Of a DNA stretch of 64,000 bases, positions 1 through 41,751 are shown piece after piece (position 1 is the first letter of the stretch; the number at the start of each line of letters is the position of its first letter). This DNA is from a virus. The stretch is from the IMG/VR virus record IMGVR_UViG_3300031673_000026, positions 4,007-68,006 of that record. One strand, given 5' to 3'. A program made the translations under genes and the position numbers. The notes beneath the pieces were generated by a model. The model saw only the letters and a program-made list of their open reading frames with translations, ran no database searches and was not told where the DNA came from.

Positions 1-78
1 TACCGGCCTGCCAAGCACCATAGGCCTCACGTTCGGCGACGATGCAAATATCAATGTCAAGCTAACGGAGGCGCTGTA

Positions 79-1524
79 ATGAATATACTTCTCGACCTGG
101 CGCTTCCCGACGCGACTATTTACGTCGCAAAAATAAAAACAGAATATAACGGCCATCAGTATATCGATGACATAGTAAGCGTTTCGGAAATCGTGGACAA
201 CATGGGCTCTGCGAAAACATACGAATCCGGGGTAATTACAATTGTGATCAATGATATGTATGGAAAGTACCGCGATGTTATGGTATCCGACACCAATCAG
301 TACATTGCCAATATCACCGCTATACTCAGGAAAGAAGACGGTACGGTACTGGCAACGCAGGGCGTCAACACCTGGTCGTTTCAGGACGGAACCTGGACCC
401 TGAAATGCAACTCTCAAATCGACATGAATGCCGATATCACGGAAAAAATCAATACCACTACCTGGCCTGATGCTGCCGACGATGCGATTGGCGAGGTGGT
501 TCCGCAGGCATACAACACGATATTGGGGCTTAAGGCGTGGTTGGTGGACGATGTCGTCAATACTGGCGGGGAATGGCTGTTGAGCAGCAAGGAAATCAGC
601 ACTATCACCAAGGTTGTCGTCGCCGGAGAGACGATACTTCCCGCATATTATTCCTTACAAAGCGGCGGCGGCTATTGGTGGGTTAAAATGTCTCATGGGG
701 TGATTATGGGCAAGGCGGATTTCGCCATCGTGGATGTAACCACTCCCGCCTACACCCCGGTGGAGATAATCACCGCCCAACTGGCAGGGACCGTCACAGT
801 TGCCACAAACGCAGGGTTCAGCGCCCGGTTGGCCGCGCAGGGGTACACAGCAAGTAATTGTCGCTATTTACTCGACAGAACAATGAGCCCCGCTGCCGCA
901 CTCAAGGCCTTCTGTGAGAGTTTTGAATGTAACTATCGCCTCGATGCTTCCGGGGAAGTGATATTCAACTGGCTCAACCGCAGCACTATCAACCTGGCGG
1001 GGACGCTGCGGGAAGTCGATATCTTGACGGCAAAACAGTCGCAGGACTATAAGCCTGCGCAAATTAAGAACAGAATAAAAATTCACTATGATAGGAACTA
1101 CGTTGACGGCGGGTACACGTATTTCGAGACCTACGCAGGCGCAAGCCAATTAACCTGGGGCACCTTTGATGCTGAGATTGAATACGAATACCTGACGGAA
1201 ACAGTCCAGGCTAATGTGAGCGTTACGGAACTCTATTATCTGTGGGCTAACCCTCCGGCGACCTGGGAGATTACGACGACAATCGACACCGGGGAAGATT
1301 ACAATAATGGGGATTGGCTCCGGGTAAGTCACCCGCGATTCTTAACCCCGAACTCGTATTTCGTCCAGGTTATCAGGAAGGCAATCCAGGCGGACAATGA
1401 CATCATAACGTTTACCGTCAGGGATTATAATTATTTATCGAAAACGTTCTATCTAATCGATGAGCGGGGTTGGTTCCTGCTCGATGTGGATGGATACAGA
1501 ATCAAGGAGGTATACAATGGGTGA
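79..1524 (+). CDS. phage tail tip/baseplate hub-like structural protein
   Basis: 481 aa, beta-rich composition. Lies directly upstream of fibre-like genes; would follow the tape-measure gene in a circular genome. Confidence 0.6.
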   Translation: MNILLDLALPDATIYVAKIKTEYNGHQYIDDIVSVSEIVDNMGSAKTYESGVITIVINDMYGKYRDVMVSDTNQYIANITAILRKEDGTVLATQGVNTWSFQDGTWTLKCNSQIDMNADITEKINTTTWPDAADDAIGEVVPQAYNTILGLKAWLVDDVVNTGGEWLLSSKEISTITKVVVAGETILPAYYSLQSGGGYWWVKMSHGVIMGKADFAIVDVTTPAYTPVEIITAQLAGTVTVATNAGFSARLAAQGYTASNCRYLLDRTMSPAAALKAFCESFECNYRLDASGEVIFNWLNRSTINLAGTLREVDILTAKQSQDYKPAQIKNRIKIHYDRNYVDGGYTYFETYAGASQLTWGTFDAEIEYEYLTETVQANVSVTELYYLWANPPATWEITTTIDTGEDYNNGDWLRVSHPRFLTPNSYFVQVIRKAIQADNDIITFTVRDYNYLSKTFYLIDERGWFLLDVDGYRIKEVYNG

Positions 1525-2233
1525 GCAATCTGTCCCCGAAAAAACACAACTGGCAAACGCAGACATAACGGACGGAGATTTCTTTTATATCGTTGACACA
1601 AGCGCCGGGGACGACGGCGGCAAGTGCCTAGATGCGAACGGTGTAGTATGGACCGGGGTTGCAAGTCGCGTAGACTGCGGGGTTGCAATCAATTTTGGAA
1701 CGGCCCTTAACCCTAATGGACAAATAGTCGAGACGGCGGGCGGAGAGTTCCGGGTTCAGGGCAGGGAAAACGATTTCAAGATCAGGCATGTCGGGACGGT
1801 GGCAGGCAACATATATATCCAGAATTTATCGCACGGAAACAATATTATATGCACAGCCGAAGACGCTGGAGGGGTTGAAAGGGCGCTATTAACCCTATCC
1901 TCAGCGAACAGGACCGCTATAGTTTCCGGCATAGAGCGAACCAAAGCGGCCGCCTCTGCCGATAGCGATGCTTTTAACGTAGCCGGTGTTTCTGTCCTGG
2001 AAGTTGACACGGCCGCCGGAAACGTTACGCTTGGGGGTCTGGCTGGCGGAGTAGCCAACCAGGATTTGAGGATCGTCAAGATCAATACAGCGAACAGCCT
2101 GATTATAGAGAATGAAGAGGGCACCGGAACCCAGAAGTTTGGGACGGCGGACGGCGCAGACATAACGCTAACGCACCGGGGCGGGGTCGATCTTCATTTT
2201 AATGGTACCCTTTGGCTGGAAGTATCACATTAA
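1517..2233 (+). CDS. tail fibre/minor tail protein
   Basis: AGGAGG RBS before ATG 1517; Gly/Ala/Thr-rich; N-terminal 'ITDGDFFYIVD' segment resembles fibre attachment regions. Confidence 0.55.
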   Translation: MGEQSVPEKTQLANADITDGDFFYIVDTSAGDDGGKCLDANGVVWTGVASRVDCGVAINFGTALNPNGQIVETAGGEFRVQGRENDFKIRHVGTVAGNIYIQNLSHGNNIICTAEDAGGVERALLTLSSANRTAIVSGIERTKAAASADSDAFNVAGVSVLEVDTAAGNVTLGGLAGGVANQDLRIVKINTANSLIIENEEGTGTQKFGTADGADITLTHRGGVDLHFNGTLWLEVSH

Positions 2234-2243
2234 AGGGGAAATT

Positions 2244-3014
2244 ATGGGAAAACGAACAGAACTACCAAACATAAACGCTATCGGTACGGCGGATAACCCG
2301 GTTACAACAATCCACGTCAAGAATATAGCAGGTGTCGAGAAAATCTACTATACAGCGCCCGTATACACGACATCGCCGGACGCGGAGACGATAGCAGGGG
2401 TGAAATTTAACACCGGAACCGGTAACCTGGAATTTAGCGCGCCGATTGTTTCGGACATTGATGTTACCGGGGACCTGGACGTTACTGGCGACGTGACCAT
2501 TATCGGAGCGACCGACATAACCGGAGATACGGACGTTACCGGGGACCTGGTAGTTACTGGAGACATTGGTTGCACCGGGGACTACAATCTAACCGGAGTC
2601 GCAAACAAGGGGTTCAAGCCGAATTCGGCTGGGGATATTACGTTTTATCAGAAGGGGATATTTACGGGGAATATCGAGGCGAATGGGAATATAAAGCTCC
2701 CAGTTGGGAAATACATAAACGATACTGGTGGGAGTACACGAGGCATAAATTTTGACGCCAGCGGGAACACCGTTATACAACAAAATCTTAACGCAACCGG
2801 ATACATTAACTCTACCGGGGCCAGTAACGGGCTAAGCTTTACGGGGGAAAACGCTTCATTCACCAAAAACGTAATAATTAACGGTGACTGCTCAGTCCCT
2901 TCCGCTACCGGGGATTACTATCACGGCTCCAATAAGGGAAAAACCGGAACGATAACTCTTGCATCTACAACACAGATACAGGTTAGTGGCGGTGTTATTT
3001 ACGGGTGGTCATAA
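2244..3014 (+). CDS. tail fibre/spike protein with 6-residue beta-helix repeats
   Basis: Repeats DVTGDL/DVTGDV/DITGDT/DVTGDL/VVTGDI typical of triple beta-helices. Confidence 0.6.
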   Translation: MGKRTELPNINAIGTADNPVTTIHVKNIAGVEKIYYTAPVYTTSPDAETIAGVKFNTGTGNLEFSAPIVSDIDVTGDLDVTGDVTIIGATDITGDTDVTGDLVVTGDIGCTGDYNLTGVANKGFKPNSAGDITFYQKGIFTGNIEANGNIKLPVGKYINDTGGSTRGINFDASGNTVIQQNLNATGYINSTGASNGLSFTGENASFTKNVIINGDCSVPSATGDYYHGSNKGKTGTITLASTTQIQVSGGVIYGWS

Positions 3015-3374
3015 ATTAAGGTTGACCACTCCCATAAAATTTACAACTTCCCACTTCCCATCGGAAGAGATGATTGCAAGGCCCTTCATTTTGTCCATCG
3101 CGTCAACGCTGCCCGAAAACCTTTTCTCTCCGATGGTGAAGTATACCGCAACGGTATTGCATGCATCCGATGATACATAATTCCATCCGCCTACCCTCTG
3201 CCAATCTCCATCCCTTTGCATGTACACGCCGTTATCGTTGAACCAAATCGAATCGATTGCCCCGTTATAGTATATGTCATATTTTTGATCGTGTATATAT
3301 CGAGCGCATAGCGTAACAGTACAAGTCATTATAGTTAAAACCAGAGTAAACGCACCCAATCTATTTATTTTCAT
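3009..3374 (-). CDS. secreted/membrane-anchored hypothetical protein
   Basis: N-terminal hydrophobic signal-like segment; AGGAG RBS. Confidence 0.5.
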   Translation of the reverse strand: MKINRLGAFTLVLTIMTCTVTLCARYIHDQKYDIYYNGAIDSIWFNDNGVYMQRDGDWQRVGGWNYVSSDACNTVAVYFTIGEKRFSGSVDAMDKMKGLAIISSDGKWEVVNFMGVVNLNL

Positions 3375-3399
3375 AGTATTCTCCTATAATTTAATTCTT

Positions 3400-3645
3400 T
3401 CATTGTCCTTCCCCCGGGTATCCAAAGTCGCCTATGCATCGGCTGCATCGCTCGATAATCCATACGCCGGGGTAGGTGACGCCAGGCTCCCTTTCTAATC
3501 TCATGGTTAACAGTATGTCGTATAGCGTGCAACCATAATCGTCTTCATGTGTATCTCCATCATTATACTGACAATCGTCACTGCACCATTCACCGTTTTC
3601 GGTAGTTACTATTCTTACCGGGATCATTTTGGTTATTTCTTTCAT
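3400..3645 (-). CDS. Cys-rich small protein (Cx3C..CxLY..RCxxC..FG family)
   Basis: Motif shared with 4833-5135, 35231-35446 and 35443-36015. Confidence 0.55.
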   Translation of the reverse strand: MKEITKMIPVRIVTTENGEWCSDDCQYNDGDTHEDDYGCTLYDILLTMRLEREPGVTYPGVWIIERCSRCIGDFGYPGEGQ

Positions 3646-3646
3646 T

Positions 3647-3916
3647 TCAATCTCCTTCTTGCTTAGATATATATCCCCTGACAATCCTGGTTGATTCCCT
3701 AATCCCTTCCAGAAACCCTTCCCGGCGCCCATCCGCGCAGCCCTTCCGGTAGGCCCCGATCACATTGACTACCATCCCACAAAGGATTCCAATCACAACG
3801 ACAATGCTCCTTCCGCCCGCGAGCAAATAGCTGGAAATGGTCATTACCGTAAGTAGTGCCGCGGTGACCGGCAGCAGGAATTCACGGATTGGCGCTATCA
3901 TCTTTTCATATTTCAT
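3647..3916 (-). CDS. small two-TM membrane protein
   Basis: Two hydrophobic segments; coupled to neighbouring genes. Confidence 0.5.
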   Translation of the reverse strand: MKYEKMIAPIREFLLPVTAALLTVMTISSYLLAGGRSIVVVIGILCGMVVNVIGAYRKGCADGRREGFLEGIRESTRIVRGYISKQEGD

Positions 3917-4071
3917 AATTCCTTCCCCCTCTTGTCCAGGCAGCCCGTACAGCCCTGCATTCCGTATTCTGAGAACGTAGTCACCTTATTATATTCCACC
4001 CAGTTCACCACCGATTCCAGGACTTTGATTACTTCGTTTTCGGTCATTTCGTACCATTGCTGCTTATTCAT
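3913..4071 (-). pseudogene. truncated copy of the 5' end of gene 18151-18594
   Basis: First 37 codons nearly identical (MNKQQWYEMTENEVIKVLESVVNWVEYNKVTTFSEYG), then diverges and stops. Confidence 0.7.
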
Positions 4072-4303
4072 TTTACCACTCCCTTGATTTTTGGCCGGCA
4101 TAAGCAATACTAATCAATTCGTCGCCGTTGAAATTTTCTGAAAAATATCTTTGTATATAATCGACCAGCGCACGCGACCCTTCATCTTCTTTTATTTTTG
4201 TAGTTATTGGCTTGCACCCTAAACTACAATACATATATGCAACACCAAAGCCTTCGTGATTATAAGTGTAAGAAGCCTTATATATTCTCATCGTGTCCTC
4301 TTC

Positions 4304-4522
4304 TTAGTTCATGCGGAGGTCTTCATCAAGCAACCCCTCATCGATCAATTGATCGGACACGTCCGAAGCTATCTCGAAAAGCTCTTCGCTTACTTCGGAT
4401 CCCGCCACGGCTGCATAATTTTCCGCCATCGTCGTCAGGCATAGGATGCCGTCATCTTCCGTGACGCTATCTAGCCAATTTGCCAACATCCATCTTTTAG
4501 CTTCTATGTTCTTTTGTTTCAT
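4304..4522 (-). CDS. acidic hypothetical protein (paralogue of 4547-4768)
   Basis: Shared AKRWMLxNW...EExFxxxxxVxDxLI pattern; GGAGG RBS. Confidence 0.6.
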   Translation of the reverse strand: MKQKNIEAKRWMLANWLDSVTEDDGILCLTTMAENYAAVAGSEVSEELFEIASDVSDQLIDEGLLDEDLRMN

Positions 4523-4546
4523 TTTAAAACCTCCGTTTTTATGATT

Positions 4547-4768
4547 TCAATTTGCCCAAATATATAAGTCATACGCTATTAACTGTTTATTAATCAGTAT
4601 GTCCGCCACTTCGTTTCCCAGGTTGAACATTTCCTCATCTCTTTCAATGCCCATTACTTCGGCGCACGTGCTGCTTAAGTCATCGGGATTAAGATGGTCG
4701 GTATAGATGGAACCTTTCCAATTCTTTAACATCCACCTTTTAGCTTTTGCTACGTCTTTCTTTTTCAT
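4547..4768 (-). CDS. hypothetical early protein (first gene after promoter cassette 1)
   Basis: GGAGG RBS inside the repeated leader; paralogue of 4304-4522. Confidence 0.6.
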   Translation of the reverse strand: MKKKDVAKAKRWMLKNWKGSIYTDHLNPDDLSSTCAEVMGIERDEEMFNLGNEVADILINKQLIAYDLYIWAN

Positions 4769-4863
4769 ATTAACCTCCGTTTTATTTAATTTCAACTATC
4801 TATATAATAGCATCTTTTTTCTATTTTGTCAACTATTTCCCAAATAAAAATAAAAAAAGTTTT
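4769..4863 (-). promoter_or_regulatory. repeated early promoter/leader cassette, copy 1
   Basis: TTGACA(4832-4827)-17-TATTAT with TG extension, then GTTGAAATTAAATAAAACGGAGG leader. Confidence 0.85.
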
Positions 4864-5135
4864 GCTACCCTGCCAAACAGGCGATGGAACAGCCCGCCCT
4901 TGACCCTGCCCCCAGTCCCGAATTGATCGACACATGCCTGGCACCGCCTGGTATATAGCCCGCGTGCCCCTACCGCGACGGCACGCATGTGCTCTCCGTA
5001 TAGACCGCACCTTTCCCTGGCATCTATCGTTTGGCTAAAGTGATCACAGTTACACATGTCGCAATTTAACGGGTCATTGTCGGCAACTTCAATGCTGGCT
5101 TCGATTTGTTTTGTGATTCTCAATTTGCGCTCCAC
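4833..5135 (-). CDS. Cys-rich small protein (CxLY..RCxxC..FG family)
   Basis: CGLY...RRCQACVDQFG; start codon uncertain. Confidence 0.5.
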   Translation of the reverse strand: MERKLRITKQIEASIEVADNDPLNCDMCNCDHFSQTIDARERCGLYGEHMRAVAVGARGLYTRRCQACVDQFGTGGRVKGGLFHRLFGRVAKLFLFLFGK

Positions 5136-5170
5136 GGGACGGCGGCCGAGTTGCCCCGGCCGCCACCTGG

Positions 5171-5359
5171 CTATACGGAACAGTTACAAGTGTTCGTCCC
5201 ACCGCTAACCGTAGTCGGCATGGCACACATCGTATCATCGAACGTTTCCCACAGGCTGCAAAGTTCAAAAAGCGATTTATCATATCCGCCCTTTGCCTCC
5301 TTCATTCCATCGCGACCGATAGTTGCGATGGTCACTTTTCCCAAGCTTAGCTTTTTCAT
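5171..5359 (-). CDS. RiPP/class I lanthipeptide precursor-like peptide
   Basis: Leader MKKLSLGKVTIATIGRDGMKEAKGG ending in double-Gly; Cys/Ser/Thr-rich core; AGGAGGAG RBS. Confidence 0.7.
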   Translation of the reverse strand: MKKLSLGKVTIATIGRDGMKEAKGGYDKSLFELCSLWETFDDTMCAMPTTVSGGTNTCNCSV

Positions 5360-5565
5360 TAAATCTCCTCCTTCCTGCACTCGTACCGGGAGCATGCGAC
5401 CTGGTACAGCATCTTATCGCCATTAAACGGGACGGCTACACGCGAATAAATATTCAGGGCGCTCTCGGATACCGTAAAGCCTCTGAGCCCCGGCGGATTT
5501 TTCCGGCATAAAAATGCAACCTGGAATCTGCAATCCTTACAGGTCTCGTTTATCCATCTTTTCAT
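5359..5565 (-). CDS. Cys-rich small protein (TCxxCxF..C..PP..CS family)
   Basis: Pattern shared with 39048-39299. Confidence 0.5.
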   Translation of the reverse strand: MKRWINETCKDCRFQVAFLCRKNPPGLRGFTVSESALNIYSRVAVPFNGDKMLYQVACSRYECRKEEI

Positions 5566-6332
5566 GGTCTCTCCCACTTTTCTTCTTTCTGTGCATCCGC
5601 TAGGTGGGATGCCATAACACCTACCGCAAACCCAAGAATAATTCCCCCGAGTATAAGATATGATAGGTTTTCAAGTATCAGGCCGCACGCGCCGCATAGC
5701 GCCCCGCAAAAGCCAACCAACAGCCAAATCGCTACCGCTATCGCTCTGGATTTCATTCTACACCCCGCAGCGCAGCCCACAGCCGCCCAAAGTATCCCCG
5801 CTTTTCTTCCTGGACCTCTTCTTCACCAAGGCGACCGATCATAAAGTGGTTAGGCCACTTATCTATCAGGCATGCTTCCGCTATGGCCTTTGATTTGTCG
5901 ATAAGCAATTGAACGGCGGCATGGTCAAATTTAGTAGAATCCGTATGCCATCCTTTCTGAACGCTGGAGACTTCGGGCATTAAGGCTATCATAATGCTAA
6001 GTGTTTCCGCTACAATCGCATCCGGGATAAAATTATACTCCAGAGCTTCCTGTACCCTTTCTTTTAATGTCATTTCGATTCACCTTCTCCTTCCTCTTTG
6101 TTCGTCCATGCGATAAAGTCTTCCCGGTCCTTCTCCAGGAACCCACGGTGTTGGTTCCCTACTATCAATTCGTAAGTCGGGCCGTTCACGGAAAAAAAAT
6201 ACCGCATGCTATCATCGGCCTGCTCAAGATGGTATATATGGCGGATGACGTGTATGTGCCCCTTTGCTGCCGCCTTTACTACTGTCCCGTCAATAAAAGT
6301 ATAATCTTCGTTCATATTTTCCTCCTTTATTT

Positions 6333-6746
6333 TTACACGACCCTATCCAGGGCCGCTTCCATTTCTTTTCTCGTACAATTATAGGGAACCTTTTCACCGT
6401 AGATAACTATCCAGTGCGGTTGATCAAGGCCCTTTTCGCGGACCCTCTCACCGTTCGGGAGAAACCCGCGTTCCCCAAGCCATTTCTCCGCCGCTTCCAG
6501 GTCGTAGAATACGCGGCCGTCCCTACCAGTTACGGCATGGTATCCGCCTTCCGGACGCATCGTAATCCCGGCGGTGTCGATTTTTTTGCCATCCGGTGTG
6601 AGTCCGCGGCGCTCCATCCACCGTTCCGCCCCGCGACGTGTTTTGAATACTTTCGATTGAGTTGCCGTCAGGGCTAAAAAGCTGCCCCTTTCCTCAATGA
6701 TGCCCACTACGTAGCTTTCGCCGTTTCCTAACTCATGCTTGGTCAT
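6333..6746 (-). CDS. DUF1391-like protein with tandem domain duplication
   Basis: ELGNGES..GI....FLALTATQSKVFKTRRGAERW resembles phage DUF1391; second internal repeat. Confidence 0.65.
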   Translation of the reverse strand: MTKHELGNGESYVVGIIEERGSFLALTATQSKVFKTRRGAERWMERRGLTPDGKKIDTAGITMRPEGGYHAVTGRDGRVFYDLEAAEKWLGERGFLPNGERVREKGLDQPHWIVIYGEKVPYNCTRKEMEAALDRVV

Positions 6747-6771
6747 TTCAACTCCTCCTTTATTTTAAAGC

Positions 6772-7167
6772 TTACACAGCTTTATTTAAGGCCGCGTTAA
6801 GCTCTTCTCTCGTACAATTATAGGGTATTTTCTCCCCATAGATAACTATAAAGCATGGCTTGTATGTCCCGCTTTTCACTACCCGCCCGTATCCATTATC
6901 ACCAAGCCATGTCTCTGCCTCTTCAGGGTTCAAAAATGAACACCCGAACATATCGGTCGTGGTGGAATAGCCGCCATCTGCCAGCTTCGTAATCCCGGCG
7001 GTACTGATTTTTTTGCCATGAGCAGCGAACCCCCTACTTAGCAGCCAGGCAGTTGCCCCCTTAAGATCATTGAAACGCTTTGATTCGGTCGGTGACAGGG
7101 CCATGAATTGCCGCCCTATCTTGGTGATACCGACCGTATAGTATCTATCGGGCTTGTTTTCTTTCAT
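6772..7167 (-). CDS. DUF1391-like paralogue of 6333-6746
   Basis: Shared GKKIxTAGIT and IVIYGEKxPYNCTRxE blocks, also similar at DNA level. Confidence 0.65.
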   Translation of the reverse strand: MKENKPDRYYTVGITKIGRQFMALSPTESKRFNDLKGATAWLLSRGFAAHGKKISTAGITKLADGGYSTTTDMFGCSFLNPEEAETWLGDNGYGRVVKSGTYKPCFIVIYGEKIPYNCTREELNAALNKAV

Positions 7168-7262
7168 AATTACCTCCGTTTTTTATTTAATTTCAACTTC
7201 GGTATAATAATAGCATCTTTTTTCTATTTTGTCAACTAATTTCTTAAACTTTTTTTATTTTG
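7168..7262 (-). promoter_or_regulatory. repeated early promoter/leader cassette, copy 2
   Basis: TTGACA(7235-7230)-17-TATTAT plus the same leader and RBS. Confidence 0.85.
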
Positions 7263-7439
7263 TTCAAGAATCTACCAGCGGTCGCCGCTGCCTTATTAAT
7301 TCATAATCCGCCGCCTCATCGTGGCCAACATTATTATAGTAATCATCTGATACCGCCTCGTAATCTATCGCGTCCGGGTCACCGCCGGAGCGCCACACGT
7401 CATAAAATACATCGTTTTCGTAATCCCGCCTACTTTTTC

Positions 7440-8030
7440 TCATTGTTTTTCTCCTTCCGGTGCAGCTAAAACGTTCCGCCACACATTTTCGATTTTCTTA
7501 TATGTTTCATCGGCTCCCAATAGCACCGATAGTCTTTCCCTAACAATCTTTATCTGTTTAATAAGAATTAGCAGCCCCTGCCACAGCGGTTCGCTATATT
7601 CAAGGTAATGATCTTTTCCGTGGTGAGACGGGACGGAAAACGTGTCCTGGTTGACTCCATGCGGAGGATAGAAGTTCCGCGCCCACTTCTCCTTAGCCGC
7701 TACCTCCGGCGTTTCCCATGAGCATGCCTTCCAGCAACTCCCGGGGCGAGCAAGATAAAATCTATCAGCCGATACTCCAACGATCGGAGTTTGATCACTG
7801 CTGTGAGACGCCTCGTATTGCTCAACGTGGATGATCGGCACCCAATCCCATACCTCCTGCGCCTTTTGCGCAACCAATAAGTATAGGTCGTTGCATTTTT
7901 CCATCATTAACTCTTCACCATACACAGTCGCGATGAAATTATTATCATTGCGGTTGAAGAATATGGGGATTACGACACCGCTGTCCGTCGTGTAACTTGA
8001 ACATTGTTGGGGTTTAAGCTTTCTTGTCAT
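7440..8030 (-). CDS. hypothetical protein
   Basis: 196-aa ORF with GGAGG RBS in the leftward operon. Confidence 0.6.
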   Translation of the reverse strand: MTRKLKPQQCSSYTTDSGVVIPIFFNRNDNNFIATVYGEELMMEKCNDLYLLVAQKAQEVWDWVPIIHVEQYEASHSSDQTPIVGVSADRFYLARPGSCWKACSWETPEVAAKEKWARNFYPPHGVNQDTFSVPSHHGKDHYLEYSEPLWQGLLILIKQIKIVRERLSVLLGADETYKKIENVWRNVLAAPEGEKQ

Positions 8031-8049
8031 TATTTTCCTCCTTGCATTC

Positions 8050-8310
8050 TCATAATCTCATCTCCCGCATCGCTTCTGCGTCGTAATCCGGTGAATCCGG
8101 GTCCGCTTGATTATACAAGGCCATCCTGCACATCAATCTGTTAAGTTTCGGGTCGTTGATTTCTGCTGCCCGGTCTGCCACTCGACCTAACAGGATGCGA
8201 AGAACGTTGAGCGGTACACGAAATACTCCACCGAGACCTCCTGCGCCTGCGATTTCTTCAAGTAAGCACGGCACGTGAACCTTCCATTGTAGCTTTGCTT
8301 TTTCAATCAT
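8050..8310 (-). CDS. conserved-looking phage hypothetical protein
   Basis: GGAGG RBS; RAAEINDPKLNRLMCRMALY..ADPDSPDYD motif. Confidence 0.55.
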   Translation of the reverse strand: MIEKAKLQWKVHVPCLLEEIAGAGGLGGVFRVPLNVLRILLGRVADRAAEINDPKLNRLMCRMALYNQADPDSPDYDAEAMREMRL

Positions 8311-8514
8311 TATTTTCCTCCTACCAATTAACTATCTTTGCTTCTTCCGTGTAGCCCGGGTCGCTATAATCGTGATAGACTACATTGCCATACGTGTACA
8401 TGATAACGCAGCTTTCCTTCTTGTCCCGGTGCGCCGCCCTATGCCTGGCGATTCCAAGATAATGAAAATCCTTCTCGCAGGTATTGCACCGGCAATCCTT
8501 GTCTTTAGTTGCGT

Positions 8515-9108
8515 TCATGATCTACACGTCCACTGCATAGACATAGCCTTAGCCATCCCCGGAAACGTGCGGCTCCTATCCTTCTGGCTTCTCGCATCAA
8601 GTTGATACCATTTCGACCCGTTACTTTTTCCGTTTTTCCTGAAATACCTTTCTCCCTTATCAACAATTCTGGTTGACATCAGCGGCGGGAGTCCCTTGAG
8701 CCACAAGCAAGTTCGCTTACTGTAGCTGTCTCCAAAATCGAAAGGGTTAACTATCTGGTTGTAGTCAGGTAGCTGAGCGTACCTGTGAGGTACGGGATTC
8801 TCTATGCACACCATGGGCACGTGCCGCAAGTTATAGAAAATACGAAAAAACTTAACCGCCTCTTGCATCTTTCCCCACCTACCGGGGTCCTTATGGAGAT
8901 GCTGCACCCCTACATTCGCCAGGTAGGTACATGGCGGATGAGCTATGACCATATTCCAGCCGTCATGTAAAATATCCATCACATCACCCTGGTAGTGTTT
9001 CCCCTGCCCTTCGGACGGCAGCAAGTCGCAGGATGTCACGTCGTGACCAAGGGCACGAAACTCCCTGCCTACCGTGTCGGTGAACTCACACGCGATTAGG
9101 ATTTTCAA
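8515..9108 (-). CDS. short phage DNA cytosine methyltransferase-like protein
   Basis: KILIACE..., SCDL, AHPPCT (catalytic PC), IENP motifs of C5-MTase-like phage family. Confidence 0.75.
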   Translation of the reverse strand: MKILIACEFTDTVGREFRALGHDVTSCDLLPSEGQGKHYQGDVMDILHDGWNMVIAHPPCTYLANVGVQHLHKDPGRWGKMQEAVKFFRIFYNLRHVPMVCIENPVPHRYAQLPDYNQIVNPFDFGDSYSKRTCLWLKGLPPLMSTRIVDKGERYFRKNGKSNGSKWYQLDARSQKDRSRTFPGMAKAMSMQWTCRS

Positions 9109-9369
9109 ATTTCCTTACCTTCATTAAAATCAATAAATGCCGACAGTGCTTCCCTGGCACCTACCATTTCCCACCATTCTTTTGCGTCCGCCAGGCTGGA
9201 GAAAGCATGGGGCATATAATGCTGAACTCCACTCCTTATTACCTGGTATATAACCCAACCTTCACCCCACGTCGTAGCATAGCACACCAATATGTCGCCC
9301 ATATATCCATTATATGTATGACTGGACGATTGTTTCCATGTAGTTTTTTTAACTTTCACCTTTGTCCTC

Positions 9370-9741
9370 CTAAATATCACTCTTCGTTACCCGGACCGAA
9401 AATGTGCAATTGCATGTCGGGGCCGTTACGATCCCCAGCTCTATCAGGTCTGAGAGCGCTTCGCTTATTTCCACACCGGAAATCGCCCCGGGAATCTCAG
9501 CCTCCGCAAAATAGTCAAAGACAACAACGCCATCGGCTGGAATCGGTGTCGGGAAATGCTCGATTCCAACCGCGTTACCTCTGAGAATGTGGTACGTTAC
9601 GCCACCGGTGGTAACGGAACAATCGCTGTCATCGTCGTGACCGAGAGCTGACAAGATCGCCTGCTGCCTCCTCCCTGCGGGACTACTCTTGGATAGTGGC
9701 GTGAATACCACCATTAGTATTAATCCGAATTTCTTTTTCAT
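9370..9741 (-). CDS. hypothetical protein
   Basis: AGGAGG RBS; short hydrophobic N-terminus. Confidence 0.5.
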   Translation of the reverse strand: MKKKFGLILMVVFTPLSKSSPAGRRQQAILSALGHDDDSDCSVTTGGVTYHILRGNAVGIEHFPTPIPADGVVVFDYFAEAEIPGAISGVEISEALSDLIELGIVTAPTCNCTFSVRVTKSDI

Positions 9742-9759
9742 ATTACCTCCTTATAAATT

Positions 9760-9832
9760 TGCCGGCGCAGGGAATCGAACCCCGAATCAATCGGTTATGA
9801 GCCGATAGCCTTAGCCGTTAGGCCACACCGGC
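9760..9832 (-). tRNA. tRNA with CAT anticodon (Met or Ile2), CCA not encoded
   Basis: Acceptor GCCGGTG/CGCCGGC, anticodon arm ATCGG-CTCATAA-CCGAT, T arm CGGGG-TTCGATT-CCCTG. Confidence 0.9.
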
Positions 9833-10360
9833 GGTATATTATATCATGATCTCCTGCCTGTCGATTAGACACTCGATCGCAGCCTTTAGTTCCGCCATTT
9901 TGCGCCTGCCCTTAGCGGACACTTTCATTTTTTCGATATCGGCATCCACATCGGCAAGGAATTTCCTCCAATCCGGCTGCGACAGTATGTACTTCCCACT
10001 TGCATTGAAGGTTCCAGGACACCCGCTATCAAGCCGCGTCAGGCAGCAATATATCGGCTCTTCCCTGTATTCACCGTATCCCACGCCAGGAGTATACGAG
10101 CCCTTATCGTAACCCTTGTGTAGACACTTGCGATACTTACATAGGCTATCACATTCAGGCGGGAGATTATCGAAATCATTCTTTTTCGGCATCGATATCC
10201 TCCTTCGAGCAATAATCACCTAACCTTACTATCCTCTGGAAAAATGCGTTGATAAGCAGTCCGTATGCTACCATTTCTTGATTAGCGTCCCCGCTCCTTT
10301 CGGCATGGCGGGGCATGGCGCAAACCCCATCTGCCATCTCAGTGGCTATTGTGGTGGTGG

Positions 10361-10573
10361 TCATGATTCCATCAGCTTTATCCCGGAATCCAACTCGAAT
10401 TCTGCCTTTCGATCAAATGCGAAAAGCATCATTTTTCTGGAAATTACTGCAACCGGAAACTGCTGTTCCAGCTCGATAATATACGCTGCCAACTCTTGCA
10501 ATCGCTTGTTCTCTGCCTTGTTCCTTACGTTACCCAGGAGCGTGGCAATTTTCTTAAATCTCGAATCTGTCAT
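10361..10573 (-). CDS. hypothetical protein
   Basis: GGAGG RBS before ATG 10573; downstream of leftward promoter. Confidence 0.55.
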   Translation of the reverse strand: MTDSRFKKIATLLGNVRNKAENKRLQELAAYIIELEQQFPVAVISRKMMLFAFDRKAEFELDSGIKLMES

Positions 10574-10670
10574 TTTGCCTCCAACAAAACGGCCGGTCAA
10601 GGCGGAAAAACCAAGGGAGGAGATCCCAAAAAACCGGCTCTCCCGGCCGCTAAGTAATTTGAACGTATAC

Positions 10671-10699
10671 AATATAGTATAAATTTGTTTAAATGTCAA
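10671..10699 (-). promoter_or_regulatory. leftward sigma70 promoter
   Basis: TTGACA-17-TATATT. Confidence 0.7.
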
Positions 10700-10746
10700 C
10701 AAAAAAATAAAAAAAGATTCCAGGGGGCCGATTGGGGCAAGTGGGT

Positions 10747-10817
10747 AAAAAAGGAAGGCGGGGCCCGTTAGGACCCCATGGAGTTGAAATCATATAAATT
10801 TGGAGGATTTGTATGAT
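10747..10817 (-). ncRNA. candidate antisense sRNA complementary to the repeated early leader/RBS
   Basis: Own promoter (TTGAAA 10852-10847, 17 nt, TATAAT 10829-10824); 5' hairpin with CCUCC loop; GC hairpin followed by U-tract. Confidence 0.55.
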
Positions 10818-10861
10818 GCTTATATTATACATCCATTTTCGGGCTTTTTCAACCGGGGCGG

Positions 10862-10957
10862 AAACTTTTTTTATTTTGTTTGAAAGAATAGTTGACAAAA
10901 TAGAAAAGTTATGCTATTATTATACCGAAGTTGAAATTAAATAAAACGGAGGTAATT
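10862..10957 (+). promoter_or_regulatory. repeated early promoter/leader cassette, copy 3
   Basis: TTGACA 10892-10897, TATTAT 10915-10920; 58-bp core identical to copy 4. Confidence 0.9.
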
Positions 10958-11713
10958 ATGAATAAAGAAACGTTGACAGTAAGGACGATGGATGGGCAAG
11001 AGGCGACCGTTCTTTTCGACGAATACAGGGACAGGGTCTTGCAAAAGAGGGGGCTCAAATGGTACGTGGAATTCAAGTACGATGAGGCCATCAAGCTGTT
11101 CACCGGGATTTCCGAAGCCTTTAAGGGAAAAGAAACCGCTGTCTTAATAGTAGAGCAAGATAAGGCTGCCCGGCTTGTCCGCGCCGAAAGGGAAAGGAAG
11201 GAAAGGGTCGTTGCCGAACTGGTTGAGGCCGGGCGGGTAGTTGGGTTTCACTATGAAATTGGCTGCGACTGCGGTGACAAGATTTACTTTGTCTATCACG
11301 ATGAAGAGGATGTCAGCTTTGACATTCTCTCTAAACGGTACAGAAGGGATGAGGGTTTAGCCGCTATGGTCGCCGACAAGTTACGCGCTGGCTGCGGAAT
11401 CGAAATGAATATCAACCCCGACCTGGGGAGCTACGGCGGATGGAAACTTACCGAAGCGCAGACCGCCTTGCTCATGGAAGCGGCCACCGAAGGCTTACAG
11501 GAAGAAGCTGAAATAAAAGAAAAAGAAAAGACCGAAGGAGAAGCGGCCACCGCCGCTATCTACCAGAAAGCCCAGGACACTGGTAAGCCGCAAGTATTGT
11601 CAATGTACTCCGAAGATTGCAATCGCCCTGACTATGCCTGCGACGTTGACAATATCGTTACTTACGCGATGCCGGATGGAAGCACATTCACGGAAAGAAT
11701 TCACTGCCATTGA
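10958..11713 (+). CDS. hypothetical early protein
   Basis: First gene after cassette 3; C-terminal C-x6-C...HCH putative metal site. Confidence 0.65.
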   Translation: MNKETLTVRTMDGQEATVLFDEYRDRVLQKRGLKWYVEFKYDEAIKLFTGISEAFKGKETAVLIVEQDKAARLVRAERERKERVVAELVEAGRVVGFHYEIGCDCGDKIYFVYHDEEDVSFDILSKRYRRDEGLAAMVADKLRAGCGIEMNINPDLGSYGGWKLTEAQTALLMEAATEGLQEEAEIKEKEKTEGEAATAAIYQKAQDTGKPQVLSMYSEDCNRPDYACDVDNIVTYAMPDGSTFTERIHCH

Positions 11714-11920
11714 GGAGAAAACAATGAACTTAACAGGACTCAAAGTAAAAACCGACAGTGGGCTTGGCGGAGTTTTTGATTGTGTGATAGTCAAGGCGGA
11801 CAGAGATCAATGCGAGCTTAAGGTAACGTCTGGCGGATGGACGAATCTCAAGCTGACGGTAGATGTCAAGGACATTCAGGTGAATCTAAAGTATGTCCTG
11901 GGTAGAATAGGAGGGGCAAG

Positions 11921-12352
11921 ATGAACCCGAAAATAGAAGCGAAAATAGAAAAATCCGGTGAGTATACACGGCGAATACACATCTTAATTACCGGAACGCT
12001 TTCCATGTACGATGTTGGCGGTGCATTCAAGGAAATTTCTAGAGTAATATTAATGGCGATTAGGTGCAACGGCGCCATGTCTGACAGCTATACGTTCAAG
12101 GAGATATGGGAGGAAGCAATAGAAGATGAAAACGTTACTTGCCAGGTCTGTGACAGCGGTCAAGACCATAACCTATTCCTTTCATACCAGACCGTTAGCG
12201 GACGAAATTTCTTTTTCCAGTATCACGACAAGGATTATGCGGAAATCAATTGTTACTTCCACCCAGAATCTAAGAATTTAGCTGCGATGATAATGGATGC
12301 GGTTAGTGGAACTGGATTATATGTCGATATTGAAGATGGAGGTAAAAAATGA
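11921..12352 (+). CDS. hypothetical protein
   Basis: RBS, coupled operon. Confidence 0.55.
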   Translation: MNPKIEAKIEKSGEYTRRIHILITGTLSMYDVGGAFKEISRVILMAIRCNGAMSDSYTFKEIWEEAIEDENVTCQVCDSGQDHNLFLSYQTVSGRNFFFQYHDKDYAEINCYFHPESKNLAAMIMDAVSGTGLYVDIEDGGKK

Positions 12353-12726
12353 GAAAAACAGTCGAAACGTTAAAAAAGGATTTCGAGGGAAAATACGGGG
12401 AACTACCAATAGTCGAAATAATAGAGCTGCTCGACTATTCCCTCTATGAGCAAACATACGAGAACGAAAAAATTAAACAAGCGTTTAATGGAGTGGCGCT
12501 GGCATTATTCTGGCCCCGGATTAAAGCAATAATCGAGGATTCGAGATGGCGGACCTTTGATGAGGAGCCAAAGCCGGGACACATCGCGATAGCCAATACT
12601 GTCGGCTCCGTTTATTCGTTTGTAGTAAAGGAGGAGGTGCGATACAATTGGAGAAGCGAAAAGAAAAGCGGTGCAATGTGGAAGCCGGTCGGGCCGCTGC
12701 CGAAAAATAAGGAAACTAAAATATAA
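12349..12726 (+). CDS. hypothetical protein with DUF551-like C-terminus
   Basis: W....EP ... WKPVGPLP pattern. Confidence 0.45.
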   Translation: MRKTVETLKKDFEGKYGELPIVEIIELLDYSLYEQTYENEKIKQAFNGVALALFWPRIKAIIEDSRWRTFDEEPKPGHIAIANTVGSVYSFVVKEEVRYNWRSEKKSGAMWKPVGPLPKNKETKI

Positions 12727-12978
12727 AAGGAGGAAACCATGGGTAAGGCAGTAAGGGTGATCTACAATCACAGCAGGCAGGGAATTATAATTAACGGCGA
12801 AAGGCACTGGGATGCGCACTGGGATGAGTATACAGTCGGGGACGGCATAAAGGAAATAACAGATTGCAGTGGAGATGGTGGCTCTACATCTGTACGTGTC
12901 GTTCGCAGCGACGGCACTTATTCGATTGTATACAATGCTGTTGAAGTGTTCTATGAAAAGTAAAACAAGCTAATCGAT

Positions 12979-13024
12979 GCCCGGCAGGCCGTGATTCATT
13001 ACCACTCCTGCCGGGCATTTTTTT
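12979..13024 (+). terminator. intrinsic terminator
   Basis: GCCCGGCAGG...CCTGCCGGGC followed by T-run. Confidence 0.8.
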
Positions 13025-13063
13025 ATTGTTGACAATTATGGGGGATTGATACATAATAGTGTC

Positions 13064-13381
13064 ATGATTATCAGACTGAAAAATGAAAAAATATATGATG
13101 GACTCGATTACCCTTACGTTGCAATCGGCAGCACCCTTGACCGGGGCGGCGGAAAACTGGTAATCGTTACCGATGAGGTAACGGACATGGAGACCGGGGA
13201 AAGGACATTAACGGTCGAGTCCTACAGCAAGGCCCTAAAAAAGAAATACTCCCGGCGACGCGGGGTTAACGTATTCTTTTGGGGGTACAATAAGAACGTA
13301 ACTGGGAAAGGCGACATTTCCATATTTAACAGAAATAAAGCCATACCAGAATTAAAGGAGATCAAATGCCAGACAAAATAA
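13064..13381 (+). CDS. hypothetical protein, apparently leaderless
   Basis: TTGACA-17-CATAAT then ATG 6 nt later. Confidence 0.55.
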   Translation: MIIRLKNEKIYDGLDYPYVAIGSTLDRGGGKLVIVTDEVTDMETGERTLTVESYSKALKKKYSRRRGVNVFFWGYNKNVTGKGDISIFNRNKAIPELKEIKCQTK

Positions 13382-14724
13382 AACTGATTTGCAGCCCGCT
13401 GGGTGGGTATTCGCTTTTGTCACGCGATAAGTGGCATATATCGTACATGAACCCGGACGGCAGCCTTGACATGCCGCGCCTGGAAGAAATCCTGCGGAGG
13501 ATAGCCAACGCTGGAGCGAACGCCATCAGGGAATTTCCCTGGTGGATACAGAATGAAGGGGAAATGGCGGTGCTTAGTGGCTTTACTGTAGACAAGTCTC
13601 TGCCTGCTCACAATGACATGATTATGAATCCTAACTATTTCAATAATCAACGTACGATAGCAGAGACAGCGAAGAAATATAACCTGGAATATATCTTTTG
13701 TCTCTACAACAACAGCGAAACGGTCCCTAATAAGGACGGCGTTTTCTCCCCATGGTCACAATGGAACGGCGATAAGGAATTTTTCTATAAGAATGAAGCC
13801 GGTCCCTACCGAAAGCAGTGGATAGAAAAAATACTAGAGACGTTCACCGGCATGGAAAACGTTTCTTATGATCTGGTCAATGAAGGGTCACACAAATACC
13901 CGGTAGAAATAGCGCAAATGTACCTGGGGATGCTAAGTTACGGGGTGCCGGTAAACAGGCTCAGTATCGGGATAAATTACGGTGAAAAGAAGATAAATAC
14001 CGATCTTATCGGCAGTTACAAAAAGTTTTCAGATAGGATCATATTCCTTCGCGGTGAGCAATTCTATATCGACAATGTTAAACGGCCCAGCGGGTCCTGG
14101 AGCCCGTTCCACGCCATCGATGATAAGAGATTGGCGGTATTCTGGACCGACGGGCTGGAGCCAGGCCAGGGAGTTCCAAAAGGCGGGCACCGGCCGACAA
14201 AATACAGCACCGACGGAACACGAATTGACGGCCTGCGCCCGAATCTCATGCAGACATACGATATGGCCAAGCGCGTCATGAGCACGAAATCAAGGGCGGT
14301 AGATAAGGGTATCGTTGCTATAGAGGTACTATTCGGAAAAGAAATGAATATTGTTGACCCCACGGCAGCCATGACAGGACTAACGCTGGCATACCAGGAA
14401 CATACCGGTGAATTTCCGGAAAATTACGGAAAATTCCCTGCCGAAGAAGTGCCGCCGGAGGATACAGATATCGATGAAGCGGTGGATTTGCTTTCGGGAA
14501 TGATAGGGGAGCGGCTACAGATTATCGAGAAAACAGAGAAAGCCCTCAAGTTAATCGATAGATTCGTCGCGGAAGCTACAGCGTTAGAGCCCACGGCGGC
14601 CTCACAATTAGGAAAGGCCGGCCGGGCCGTGTTCGCCGCAAAGGAAATGAGTACCGGCCCGATAGAACAAATAGTAAGCGCCCTGAAATTTATCGATGAA
14701 TATAATGGACAGGTGGCAAAATGA
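13366..14724 (+). CDS. clan GH-A (GH5-like) glycoside hydrolase-like protein with C-terminal helical tail
   Basis: GANAIREF, YDLVNEG acid/base motif, STDG at the usual nucleophile position. Confidence 0.55.
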   Translation: MPDKIKLICSPLGGYSLLSRDKWHISYMNPDGSLDMPRLEEILRRIANAGANAIREFPWWIQNEGEMAVLSGFTVDKSLPAHNDMIMNPNYFNNQRTIAETAKKYNLEYIFCLYNNSETVPNKDGVFSPWSQWNGDKEFFYKNEAGPYRKQWIEKILETFTGMENVSYDLVNEGSHKYPVEIAQMYLGMLSYGVPVNRLSIGINYGEKKINTDLIGSYKKFSDRIIFLRGEQFYIDNVKRPSGSWSPFHAIDDKRLAVFWTDGLEPGQGVPKGGHRPTKYSTDGTRIDGLRPNLMQTYDMAKRVMSTKSRAVDKGIVAIEVLFGKEMNIVDPTAAMTGLTLAYQEHTGEFPENYGKFPAEEVPPEDTDIDEAVDLLSGMIGERLQIIEKTEKALKLIDRFVAEATALEPTAASQLGKAGRAVFAAKEMSTGPIEQIVSALKFIDEYNGQVAK

Positions 14725-16728: not shown

Positions 16729-16738
16729 TGACGCTTCC

Positions 16739-17092: not shown

Positions 17093-17150
17093 TATCAAGT
17101 AATTTCACCGTTCGACCGGGCGATGGAAACGTAGGTCACCACTCCGCGCA

Positions 17151-18139: not shown

Positions 18140-18150
18140 CGGAGGATAAA

Positions 18151-19523: not shown

Positions 19524-19546
19524 TAACAGGCGGAAGGAGAAAAACA

Positions 19547-25603: not shown

Positions 25604-25753
25604 AGACCATGACTGCGACCGAGCTCCTAAGAATGCGTTTCCAGGAAATCCTGAAATACATTAACGATCTTGAAAAGGAGCTCGCGTCGCGGGCTGTGGA
25701 AGAGCTGGAAATAACTTATACTGACTGAGATTAACGAAAAAAAGGAGAAAAAT

Positions 25754-25903
25754 ATGAAACATTTAAATTTTAGAAAAGTAACGATTGCCAACCTTAACCG
25801 CTTGTATACCCCTGGGTATGATGATGAAACCAGAAGAACAGATTGCGGGTCCTATTGTGTTTGTCAGGAAGGCGATATCACCGATACCTATGGTGACAGG
25901 TAG
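25754..25903 (+). CDS. second RiPP-precursor-like peptide (49 aa, not in ORF track)
   Basis: AAGGAG RBS; MKHLNFRKVTIANLNR leader-like start; core TDCGSYCVC. Confidence 0.55.
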   Translation: MKHLNFRKVTIANLNRLYTPGYDDETRRTDCGSYCVCQEGDITDTYGDR

Positions 25904-27392
25904 ACTTATTGTGGTCGCGGCCCCCATAGGGCCGCACCTATCAGTATAAACATAAAAACGGAGAAAAAATGAATATTCCACGCTTACTTGAAAGATACTG
26001 GTTGCCGCACCTGGTCGGAATTAGCCAGGTAATTAGATTCGACGATGATCGTGTTGAAAGAAATATCGGCGACCCGGTGAAATTAATCGGGCTAAATCCG
26101 AAGCTTTGTCGTTGCTGCAACGAAGGCGAGCCGTGCTTAGATTACGATGTCCTTCAATGGGAAAAAAATATGCTAATCGTAACGACCGCGACGAAATGCT
26201 TGCTTTGCAATATGCAGGGAAGCGACTCGTTTGCAATTCACTTTTGTGAGAATTGCCATGCACCAATCGAACCCAGGGGTAAGAAATTTATGTATAGTAG
26301 TCAATATCGAGAGCTTGACGATATGGAAGTATGCGAAAAATGCTTCGATGATTTAGGCGGGGAAGAAGCAACGGGAAGTATTTTTGGTAAATAAAGTTAA
26401 AAAATATATAGGAGGAAAACATGGCACACGACGATATACCAGAAGACGACTACCAAAGTTTCCCCTGCAACTGTGGCGGGGAAATAAAGAAAAATGCGTA
26501 CGGGTATTGGGAATGCGATACTTGCGATTTTCGCAAGGAAGTGTAATATGCCCATGACATACGATGAAGCATTTGAATTTTTCGATAAGCACTATAGGGG
26601 CGAATGGCACTTCCCTTACCCAATAAAGAAGTGCGGAGGTGGCTGGAGCATGCTTTGCCACTCTAAAGAAAATCTATCAACATACGACAACAACAACCTG
26701 ACAAGGCTTGTTCTTAGGGCACATCACGAGGCTTACCGGTTACACATTGAAAGCGCGGGAAATAAGATGAAAATTGTTATCTACAAGCGCGTCAGGGACC
26801 CGGAGGAGAGGTATTACAGAAGGCACCCGTCGATAGAAGAGGCGATTGAACACTGGCTGGAGTGCGGATAATATGAAACGCAGTGAAAGAAAGCTCATGA
26901 ATAGAATCGCAAAAATAGGTGACCTAAAAGAAGAAATAGAAGGCTTCCTTTGGAAAACCAATTATGACTTATGGAAAATATTAGATGATAACGACCTGTA
27001 TGTTCCTAACATTTATGAATACAGGGTTGACTTTAACAGCATGGTTGTGTATTTTGTGGATGTAGGAAGCGGCGATGTAGTAACCAATAAGTACGGTGAA
27101 AGATTCGAGATCGATATATTGGGAATGTTAATGAAAAAATACGGAGGATGACATGAAGTATATACTGACAGAAAAAGAGTTAAGGCGATATGAAAAAAGG
27201 ATTGAGGAAAAGCAAAGCATAATTAACGGCCTATGTCAGCGCGTCTGCGATAGCGAGCCAATCAGCATAGAGGGCTGTTATAAAAACACCTGGGGATGTA
27301 TCTATAGTAGCGACCATAAAAACGAATGGTACTGCGATGAATGCCCTGTCCTAAATATATGCGGGAAGATAAAACATTTTTCAAAATAAAAG

Positions 27393-41747: not shown

Positions 41748-41751
41748 TGTG

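Follow-up and report, generated by a model that had tools for sequence, protein, structure and literature searches.

A precursor-type gene with a class I lanthipeptide-like leader, and its apparent second copy, in a phage genome without lanthipeptide enzymes

We describe a small gene, pep1, in a 64,000-nucleotide (nt) stretch of phage DNA, hereafter the window, which comprises bases 4007-68006 of the 68,006-bp virus record IMGVR_UViG_3300031673_000026 (IMG/VR); coordinates are those of the window unless another sequence is named. Pep1 (5171..5359, minus strand; 62 codons and a TAG stop) is a precursor-type gene, and by its sequence it appears to be a genuine class I lanthipeptide precursor gene of the L1a ("LxLxKx5L...Gly-Gly") type; its modification, export and role are matters that we infer. 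Precursors of RiPPs (peptides made on the ribosome and modified after translation) are usually considered jointly with their enzymes; in this case the substrate alone is carried by a virus, under purifying selection.

Results

When pep1 was compared with 18,950 NCBIfam models, two families matched, and the top one was NF038153 (lant_leader_L1a; 20.1 bits, E 5.5e-4), with residues 2-25 of the peptide aligned to positions 9-32 of the 32 in the model. A six-frame scan of the 68-kb genome with NF038153 gave pep1 21.1 bits (E 3.7e-5; curated cut-off, 22 bits), and the single other match at E≤10 was a second locus, pep2, at 14.8 bits. A first-pass annotation of this DNA had likened the leader to both class I lanthipeptide and TIGR04149-type precursors; the class I part stands, with a match just below the cut-off, while TIGR04149 matched only weakly (12 bits, E 0.14), far under its curated 25 bits and with no radical-SAM/SPASM neighbor. 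Pfam and PHROGs returned no family for pep1.

The leader, residues 1-25 (5285-5359, minus strand), ends in Gly-Gly (G24-G25), and contains the LxLxKx5L motif as L4-S-L6-G-K8-VTIAT-I14, with Ile replacing the final Leu. Aligned with genuine leaders, pep1 is free of gaps from KKLSL through GG, and its Gly-Gly is in register with that of 11 of them; M1, L4, K8 and G24 are invariant in this alignment, and K2, K3, L6, L14, G25 and C34 nearly so. An example of a genuine member is MKKQLKTKLSLNKETVAKLNEEQMELVAGG, followed by its core. Pep1 is without the first eight positions of NF038153, but some genuine members likewise begin at model position 8-9, and one likely genuine member, precursor-like by its sequence (genome G528), is also below the cut-off at 20.8 bits. 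For the formation of thioether rings, the 37-residue core (5174-5284, minus strand) offers 4 Cys and 10 Ser/Thr (counted by eye); crude values for the phage proteome are 1.9% Cys and 11.5% Ser+Thr. The C-terminus, TNTCNCSV, resembles the TSTCKCSC and TCVSCP of genuine cores. A language-model look-alike search ranked class I leader clusters second and third (0.84 and 0.83), which, being below the 0.9 bar, we treat as a lead. The sections of Walker et al. 2020 (PMC7268733) on these peptides describe Bacteroidetes class I precursors that have LxLxKx5L and often a Gly-Gly end, often with a C39 protease in the cluster.

The background of such matches was obtained by running NF038153 over whole genomes sampled from several bacterial groups, at E≤0.01. 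Matches were found in none of 401 Bacillota and none of 120 Chloroflexota genomes, in 2 of 400 Gammaproteobacteria (one above the cut-off, at 22.2 bits), in 6 of 301 Bacteroidota (5 above), in 6 of 120 Acidobacteriota (5 above), and in none of 10 single genomes reached through loci. The 921 genomes of the three groups without true members thus contributed two matches, one of 22.2 bits and one of 17.9 bits inside a 171-amino-acid (aa) frame. The former was ruled out as a genuine leader, being on the strand opposite a P-type ATPase gene. A chance match of about 21 bits is therefore a rare event, though a possible one.

Selection on pep1 could be followed in L063, a metagenome contig that is a relative of the phage and not a copy (93.7% identity to the window over 4774-7148, 94.4% over 1380-2455 and 97.4% over 3390-3655), and that was the one pep1 relative yielded by metagenome contigs. 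L063 encodes pep1 at 100% protein identity: it has four synonymous changes, two of them in the core, TAA for the TAG stop, and no nonsynonymous change (proportion of synonymous differences, pS, 0.10; of nonsynonymous differences, pN, 0), and contigs of a soil run (X2) carry the same five changes. By hand calculation, four synonymous changes out of four would arise by chance with p = (40/186)^4 = 0.002, and pN in the other seven ORFs (open reading frames) of the L063-aligned stretch is 0.019-0.085. The translation given in the first-pass annotation was exact, and the strong ribosome-binding site noted there is present: a spacing of 5 nt separates the Shine-Dalgarno sequence GGAGGAG (5365..5371, minus strand; read by eye) from the ATG that follows it. 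This ATG is overlapped (TAATG) by the TAA with which the preceding ORF terminates, an arrangement frequent in tightly packed operons, and a 3-nt deletion in L063 (5361-5363) turns this into ATGA with both reading frames intact.

It is very improbable that the pep1 frame is instead open by chance, or a shadow cast by an antisense ORF on the plus strand (5106-5426). The five L063 changes are silent in the antisense frame as well, owing to shared third positions (hand calculation), but in L063 this ORF is frameshifted and has many stops, and it lacks a Shine-Dalgarno sequence; pep1, by contrast, is preceded by a strong ribosome-binding site, its start overlaps a stop in both variants, and its own stop codon is preserved. 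We thus conclude that pep1 is a real gene under purifying selection. Relatives beyond L063 were not found: searches of 50,697 phage records, at the DNA level and by tblastn, gave nothing for pep1, and IMG/VR gave no relatives of pep1, the portal, the 196-aa neighbor or pep2. Candidates retrieved with DNA patterns were rejected, those for MKxLxxxKVTIA (3 IMG/VR and 42 genome matches) as lying within larger proteins, signal peptides or stubs, and both IMG/VR matches to KLSLxKET[IV]AxL as junk.

The phage genome is effectively complete, and was probably assembled from a circle: the ends of the record (its bases 1-144 and 67863-68006) repeat 144 bp with one mismatch, in line with its earlier description as near-complete, and the record is classed as linear and 91% complete. 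The absence of a gene can therefore be assessed. As had been claimed from the sequence, no LanB/LanC, SPASM maturase or peptidase-ABC exporter is encoded; six-frame searches of the whole phage at E≤10 found no match to the LanB domains Lant_dehydr_N (PF04738) and Lant_dehydr_C (PF14028), to LanC (LANC_like, PF05147), to Peptidase_C39 (PF03412) or to Radical_SAM (PF04055). Controls were positive in 7 of 14 genomes for Peptidase_C39 and in all 14 for Radical_SAM; those for PF14028 and PF05147 stayed below the cut-off, but both families were detected in Acidobacteriota clusters, and all three lanthipeptide-enzyme models find targets in other genomes. Pfam likewise found no RiPP-enzyme family among 50 window proteins, a set that included every ORF of at least 300 aa wholly inside the window and left out the long tail gene that runs off its end. 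For the genuine members of Bacteroidota, each of the 5 genomes has LanB and precursors separated by 0.3-3.5 kb.

Two candidates for hidden enzymes were rejected. A 452-aa protein considered as a cyclase resembles a GH5-type barrel. An ABC_tran match at 40686-41747 (plus strand), considered as an exporter, belongs to a soluble 353-aa fusion of an AAA/ABC-type ATPase and a GNAT acetyltransferase, for which Pfam gave no ABC_membrane or C39. According to part of the "lanthiphage" preprint (bioRxiv 10.1101/2024.06.26.600839), phages escaped lanthipeptide defense through mutations in phage GNAT.

The second locus, pep2 (25754..25903, plus strand; 49 codons), has AAGGAG (25742..25747, plus strand; read by eye) 6 nt before its ATG. 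It reads in full MKHLNFRKVTIANLNRLYTPGYDDETRRTDCGSYCVCQEGDITDTYGDR, with the leader, MKHLNFRKVTIANLNRLYTPG, ending in Pro-Gly before a 28-residue core that begins YDDE and contains 3 Cys and 5 Ser/Thr (by eye). NF038153 was its sole NCBIfam family (14 bits, and 14.8 bits in the six-frame scan, under the cut-off of 22). Its leader motif is L4-N-F6-R-K8-VTIAN-L14, with Phe replacing the second Leu. Pep1 and pep2 have in common an MKxLxxxKVTIA start, sharing M1, K2, L4, K8-V-T-I-A12, R16 and a G-Y-D junction, and K[VIL]T[IVL][AS] is found in just 2 of 2006 six-frame segments, both times at residues 8-12 of these two peptides. From these features pep2 appears to be a diverged second copy of pep1.

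The two genes also share a 3' element. In the whole 68 kb, a scan for perfect stems (7 bp or longer, 6 or more G-C pairs) closed by loops of 3-8 nt found exactly two hairpins, one directly 3' of pep1 and the other directly 3' of pep2. The pep1 hairpin (5141..5164, minus strand) has an 8-bp GC stem and an 8-nt loop, lies 6 nt past the stop, and has a folding energy of −28.9 kcal/mol (z −1.8); that of pep2 (25917..25935, plus strand) has a 7-bp GC stem and a 5-nt loop, lies 13 nt past the stop, and folds at −23.0 kcal/mol (z −3.96; equally stable in 0 of 200 shuffles). Neither is followed by a U run. In L063 the pep1 stem differs at 5141 and 5159 (plus-strand G>A); read by hand, these changes leave G-U pairs in minus-strand RNA and A-C mismatches on the other strand, and because pairing is thus kept on minus-strand RNA alone, the hairpin seems to belong, as an RNA element, to the sense transcript. 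Of 16 genuine precursors, 7 likewise have a stable hairpin (z≤−2.5) no more than 63 nt past the stop; hairpins located 3' of lanA genes serve in attenuation or stabilization.

Small ORFs form a leftward block (about 3009-10200) that separates the tail-fiber genes from a divergent control region, and pep1 is one of them. The leftward unit that holds it is headed by a promoter-like repeat of 35-69 nt (7207..7241, minus strand; TTGACA-17-TATTAT with TG), and pep1 would therefore be transcribed from the promoter at 7235, after five or six small genes. Further copies of the repeat are at 4804-4838 (minus) and 10886-10920 (plus); with the A/T-rich upstream part, the three elements span 4804-4862 (minus), 7181-7249 (minus) and 10862-10946 (plus), with arms that are 83-97% identical over as much as 69 nt. 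At the 7016-7266 copy, public contigs accumulate (depth 717, run X1) and assemblies break. Between pep1 and the next promoter are the hairpin and one more Cys-rich small ORF (4833..5123, minus; CxxCxC...CxxC), which has a TTG start, ATG in L063, with pS 0.147 and pN 0.029 over 4900-5123, and whose C-terminus is frameshifted in L063. The ORF whose stop overlaps the pep1 start (5359..5565, minus, with MKRW as its probable start; also delimited as 5359-5577) is also small and Cys-rich and is kept in L063. Small CxxC-type proteins that look zinc-binding are encoded at 3400-3645, 4833-5123 and 5359-5565 (minus) and at 25969-26394 (plus); two of these flank pep1 and one follows pep2, and searches gave them no family matches.

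In L063, the five small ORFs of window 3655-4774 give way to about 416 nt that include a RadC-like JAB-domain gene (L063 2451-2870, plus strand; 101 bits), and this replacement marks the block adjoining pep1 as a swap-prone accessory region. The block also contains two paralogous pairs on the minus strand, one (6333-6746 and 6772-7167) with an N-terminal DUF1391 (68 and 16 bits) and a common C-terminal IVIYGEK.PYNCTR.E, the other (4304-4522 and 4547-4795) with AKRWML.NW near the N-terminus and no family match. At its inner end is a tRNA-Met (CAT; 9760-9832, minus), the sole Rfam match in the window.

Pep2 is set in a recombination/replication module with RecT (23221-24024), a PD-(D/E)XK nuclease (24035-24619) and a DnaC-like ATPase (30322-31014). 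The head module is Mu-like (portal, gpF, gpT), TerS and TerL are at 41731-42294 and 43692-45119, and no match to a tyrosine integrase or an rve transposase was found in the phage. The early/replication region encodes two adjacent GH5-like, glycoside-hydrolase-type proteins (13366-14724 and 14721-15635, plus), one found by Pfam and the other by language-model and structure look-alikes only. A GH19 muramidase-type protein (42490-43416, plus) lies between TerS and TerL, outside any lysis cassette, and no holin or spanin is evident adjoining its gene.

Both runs in which the phage was found are labeled soil metagenome, and host pointers from gene neighbors conflict. Against portals of named phages, that of this phage does not exceed 28% identity; the nearest relatives of TerL and RecT are mostly in Bacillota phages, at about 30% identity; DUF1391 of the 6333-6746 protein occurs in 19 records, all of them phages of Gammaproteobacteria (enterobacteria, Pantoea, Serratia, Salicola) apart from one unclassified phage; and the named GH19 relatives are from Gammaproteobacteria and Bacteroidota. 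GGAGG/AGGAG was found within 20 nt of the start in 39 of 81 ORFs of at least 100 aa, against 3% of random 20-mers, a count in which the choice of starts favored the motif, and the phage promoters are sigma-70-like (TTGACA/TATTAT). Frequent Shine-Dalgarno sites and promoters of this type are unusual in Bacteroidota, which were rejected as host for these two reasons.

Genuine L1a leaders were most frequent in Acidobacteriota (5 of 120 genomes), with most matches beginning at model position 8 (position 9 for pep1). Six L1a loci were retrieved from this phylum. One (L077) consists of a precursor, LanC, an HlyD/GAF protein, a C39-ABC exporter and LanB; another (L072) of two precursors, LanC, LanB and a C39-ABC exporter; and a third (L078) of two short precursors, LanC and LanB. 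Complete matching L1a clusters thus exist in a soil phylum. The two L078 precursors (L078 577-696 and 1393-1644, both minus) have cores of about 10-12 residues with a single Cys and are divergent from LanC-LanB. The precursor of a further locus (L075) has a leader that ends KGG like that of pep1, and is closest to pep1 in the precursor alignment (37% identity). Loci of genomes G1218 and G1199 have a guanine-plus-cytosine (GC) content of 47-52% and GGAGG or GAAGGAG before the precursor, and the GC content of the phage is 43-51%; compared as DNA, window 1-20000 had no match in G1218. To judge from these sequence features, a low-GC acidobacterium would be a plausible host lineage.

Discussion

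The first-pass annotation took pep1 for an orphan precursor or a leader decoy. Its leader match, its standing as a real, conserved gene and its orphan status hold up; the action of host enzymes, and the choice between precursor and decoy, we continue to treat as conditional. Because enzymes for modification, cleavage and export are all missing from the phage, we propose a mechanism that runs through host machinery. Pep1 would be transcribed early from a strong sigma-70-type promoter, inside a variable block of small accessory genes, and the 3' hairpin would stabilize or attenuate its message. A host class I system would then recognize the leader, with host LanB dehydrating Ser/Thr and host LanC closing thioether rings onto the four Cys, and a host C39-ABC exporter would cut after Gly25 and export a phage-specified 37-residue product. 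That pep1 is a working substrate of this kind is the reading we prefer, though we hold it tentatively, as somewhat less than probable.

Several observations weigh against this reading. Pep1 falls 1-2 bits short of the NF038153 cut-off, and the antisense frame at 22.2 bits shows that a spurious match can exceed that score. No genuine L1a leader was found in 401 Bacillota genomes, nor any true one in 400 of Gammaproteobacteria, the two groups to which the resemblances of several phage genes point. Pep1 retrieved itself alone from 5.8 billion clustered proteins, with no whole-peptide homologue, and from 1.84 billion representatives itself and one 1979-aa protein (E 9e-4), which was judged spurious from its length and its match in five short stretches. 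BLASTP gives no alignment between pep1 and pep2, so their kinship rests on the motif, the model matches and the common hairpin; pep2, moreover, has Pro-Gly in place of Gly-Gly and is without the hydrophobic pattern at −4, −7 and −12. The many small Cys-rich proteins around pep1 make its Cys content unremarkable for the block. Finally, if the phage is lytic, the gain from an exported product is hard to see.

Some of these points would also suit an ordinary intracellular small phage protein, for example a binder of metal or of a host target, that is leader-like by chance or by descent from a precursor once captured, and no longer engages RiPP enzymes: the score below the cut-off, the lack of full-length homologues in two large protein collections, the small Cys-rich neighbors, and the failure to find matching clusters in most of the sampled groups. 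Such a protein would not, however, be expected to produce two independent genes with a common leader start and a hairpin design unique in the genome, nor a gap-free fit to the leader up to Gly-Gly at a whole-genome E of 3.7e-5, and the Atlas structure model, whose confidence is very low (pLDDT 0.32), shows no sign of a fold in pep1. We regard this explanation as unlikely, but it is the one among the alternatives to which we give most weight.

Alternatively, one could envision a leader that serves as an export signal only, so that a host C39-ABC exporter would release an unmodified peptide, perhaps with disulfide bonds but without lanthionine, that acts in signaling or like a bacteriocin. The C39 hydrophobic groove is described, in the relevant part of PMC6363468, as seating leader positions −4, −7 and −12, and pep1 has non-polar residues at all three (A, M and I, by eye), so that together with its Gly-Gly it presents the pattern that C39 domains read. 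Its four Cys could make two disulfides, and the weak TIGR04149 match shows a leader style common to different modification systems. But the best model is that of a class I leader, whose LxLxKx5L lies upstream of the region read by C39; the C-terminal TxTCxC fits genuine lanthipeptide cores; and pep2 is without Gly-Gly. Export alone thus seems a distinctly unlikely account of pep1.

A further alternative is that pep1 and pep2 are leader decoys or competing substrates, which would occupy host LanB, LanC or the C39 exporter and so block a host lanthipeptide, for instance an anti-phage one, as a form of counter-defense. The premise, put forward in the first-pass annotation, that lanthipeptide clusters can defend against phages has support in the literature for class I clusters, in those portions that treat of defense. 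The "lanthiphage" preprint (bioRxiv 10.1101/2024.06.26.600839), as far as its pertinent sections go, ties class I lanthipeptide chemistry to phage-host conflict as we do; it differs in that the clusters are complete, belong to actinobacterial hosts, act against phages and have other leaders; their actinobacterial setting and their leaders tell against applying the decoy account to pep1. A decoy would fit an early, variable accessory block in which five ORFs are exchanged for a RadC-like gene in L063, as well as the lack of the lysogeny genes searched for, tyrosine integrase and rve transposase. It would also fit pep2, which keeps the first half of the leader (LxFxKx5L) and so might bind the enzymes without being open to C39 cleavage. 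However, Cys and Ser/Thr are kept in both cores, and the pep1 core is as conserved in L063 as the leader, even the two changes within it being synonymous; that leader and core are alike unchanged leans weakly against a pure leader decoy, which we consider improbable on balance, slightly more so than an ordinary small protein.

Returning to a substrate for host enzymes, we suggest, a little more tentatively than for pep1 itself, that unrelated phages repeatedly carry precursor-only lanthipeptide genes as a kind of auxiliary gene, and that the LanB/LanC/exporter machinery of the host either builds a phage-specified ring peptide or stalls, so that a secondary-metabolite or defense pathway of the host is reprogrammed or jammed in the course of infection. 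If host enzymes do act on pep1, the phage would have a cheap route to redirect or block a host natural-product pathway, at about 190 nt against a cluster of about 8 kb, and a phage side would be added to the part played by class I lanthipeptides in anti-phage defense. Either peptide could be paired for testing with LanB, LanC and C39 of an L1a-type cluster from Acidobacteriota or Bacteroidota of soil. Genome mining should likewise allow for function in "orphan" precursors that turn up on viral contigs.

Consistent with the L1a precursors of NF038153, as covered in part of PMC7268733, pep1 and pep2 have an LxLxKx5L-type motif, and pep1 has the same leader length to Gly-Gly, M at −7, a Cys/Ser/Thr-rich core ending TxTCxC and a 3' hairpin. 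In contrast to those precursors, pep1 is encoded by a phage whose genome lacks LanB, LanC and the C39 exporter, and the pep1 and pep2 cores are without detectable relatives. The viridisins, thalassomonasins, Ped15 and pinensins are similarly class I systems of Gram-negative bacteria in which several precursors have one conserved Gly-Gly leader and differing cores; in these, as presented in sections of Vermeulen et al. 2022 (PMC9680876), the precursors are in an operon with their enzymes and none is phage-borne. No phage-borne orphan lanthipeptide precursor was found in the literature surveyed, which included portions of PMC11118758, PMC12360287 and the 2024 preprint but not supplementary lists of precursors and prophage clusters. 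The type of peptide is thus known, while a duplicated, conserved, precursor-only viral version has apparently not been reported in print.

The Acidobacteriota loci (L072, L077 and L078, and the L075 precursor) are similar to the phage genes in their short-headed leaders, KGG end and soil habitat, and L075 and L077 also in a GC content of 47-52% and in GGAGG or GAAGGAG before the precursor. They differ in that their precursors adjoin LanC and LanB, and in L072 and L077 a C39-ABC exporter as well; from these likenesses such a lineage is a candidate host. Phage-borne RiPP clusters that bring their own enzymes are known, as for sublancin on SPbeta. The prochlorosins offer a precedent for supply in trans, since a remotely encoded, tolerant synthetase, ProcM, acts on precursors whose leader is conserved and whose cores vary. 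That system is of class II (LanM), with precursors and enzyme in one genome, whereas for pep1 the enzyme would be that of the host.

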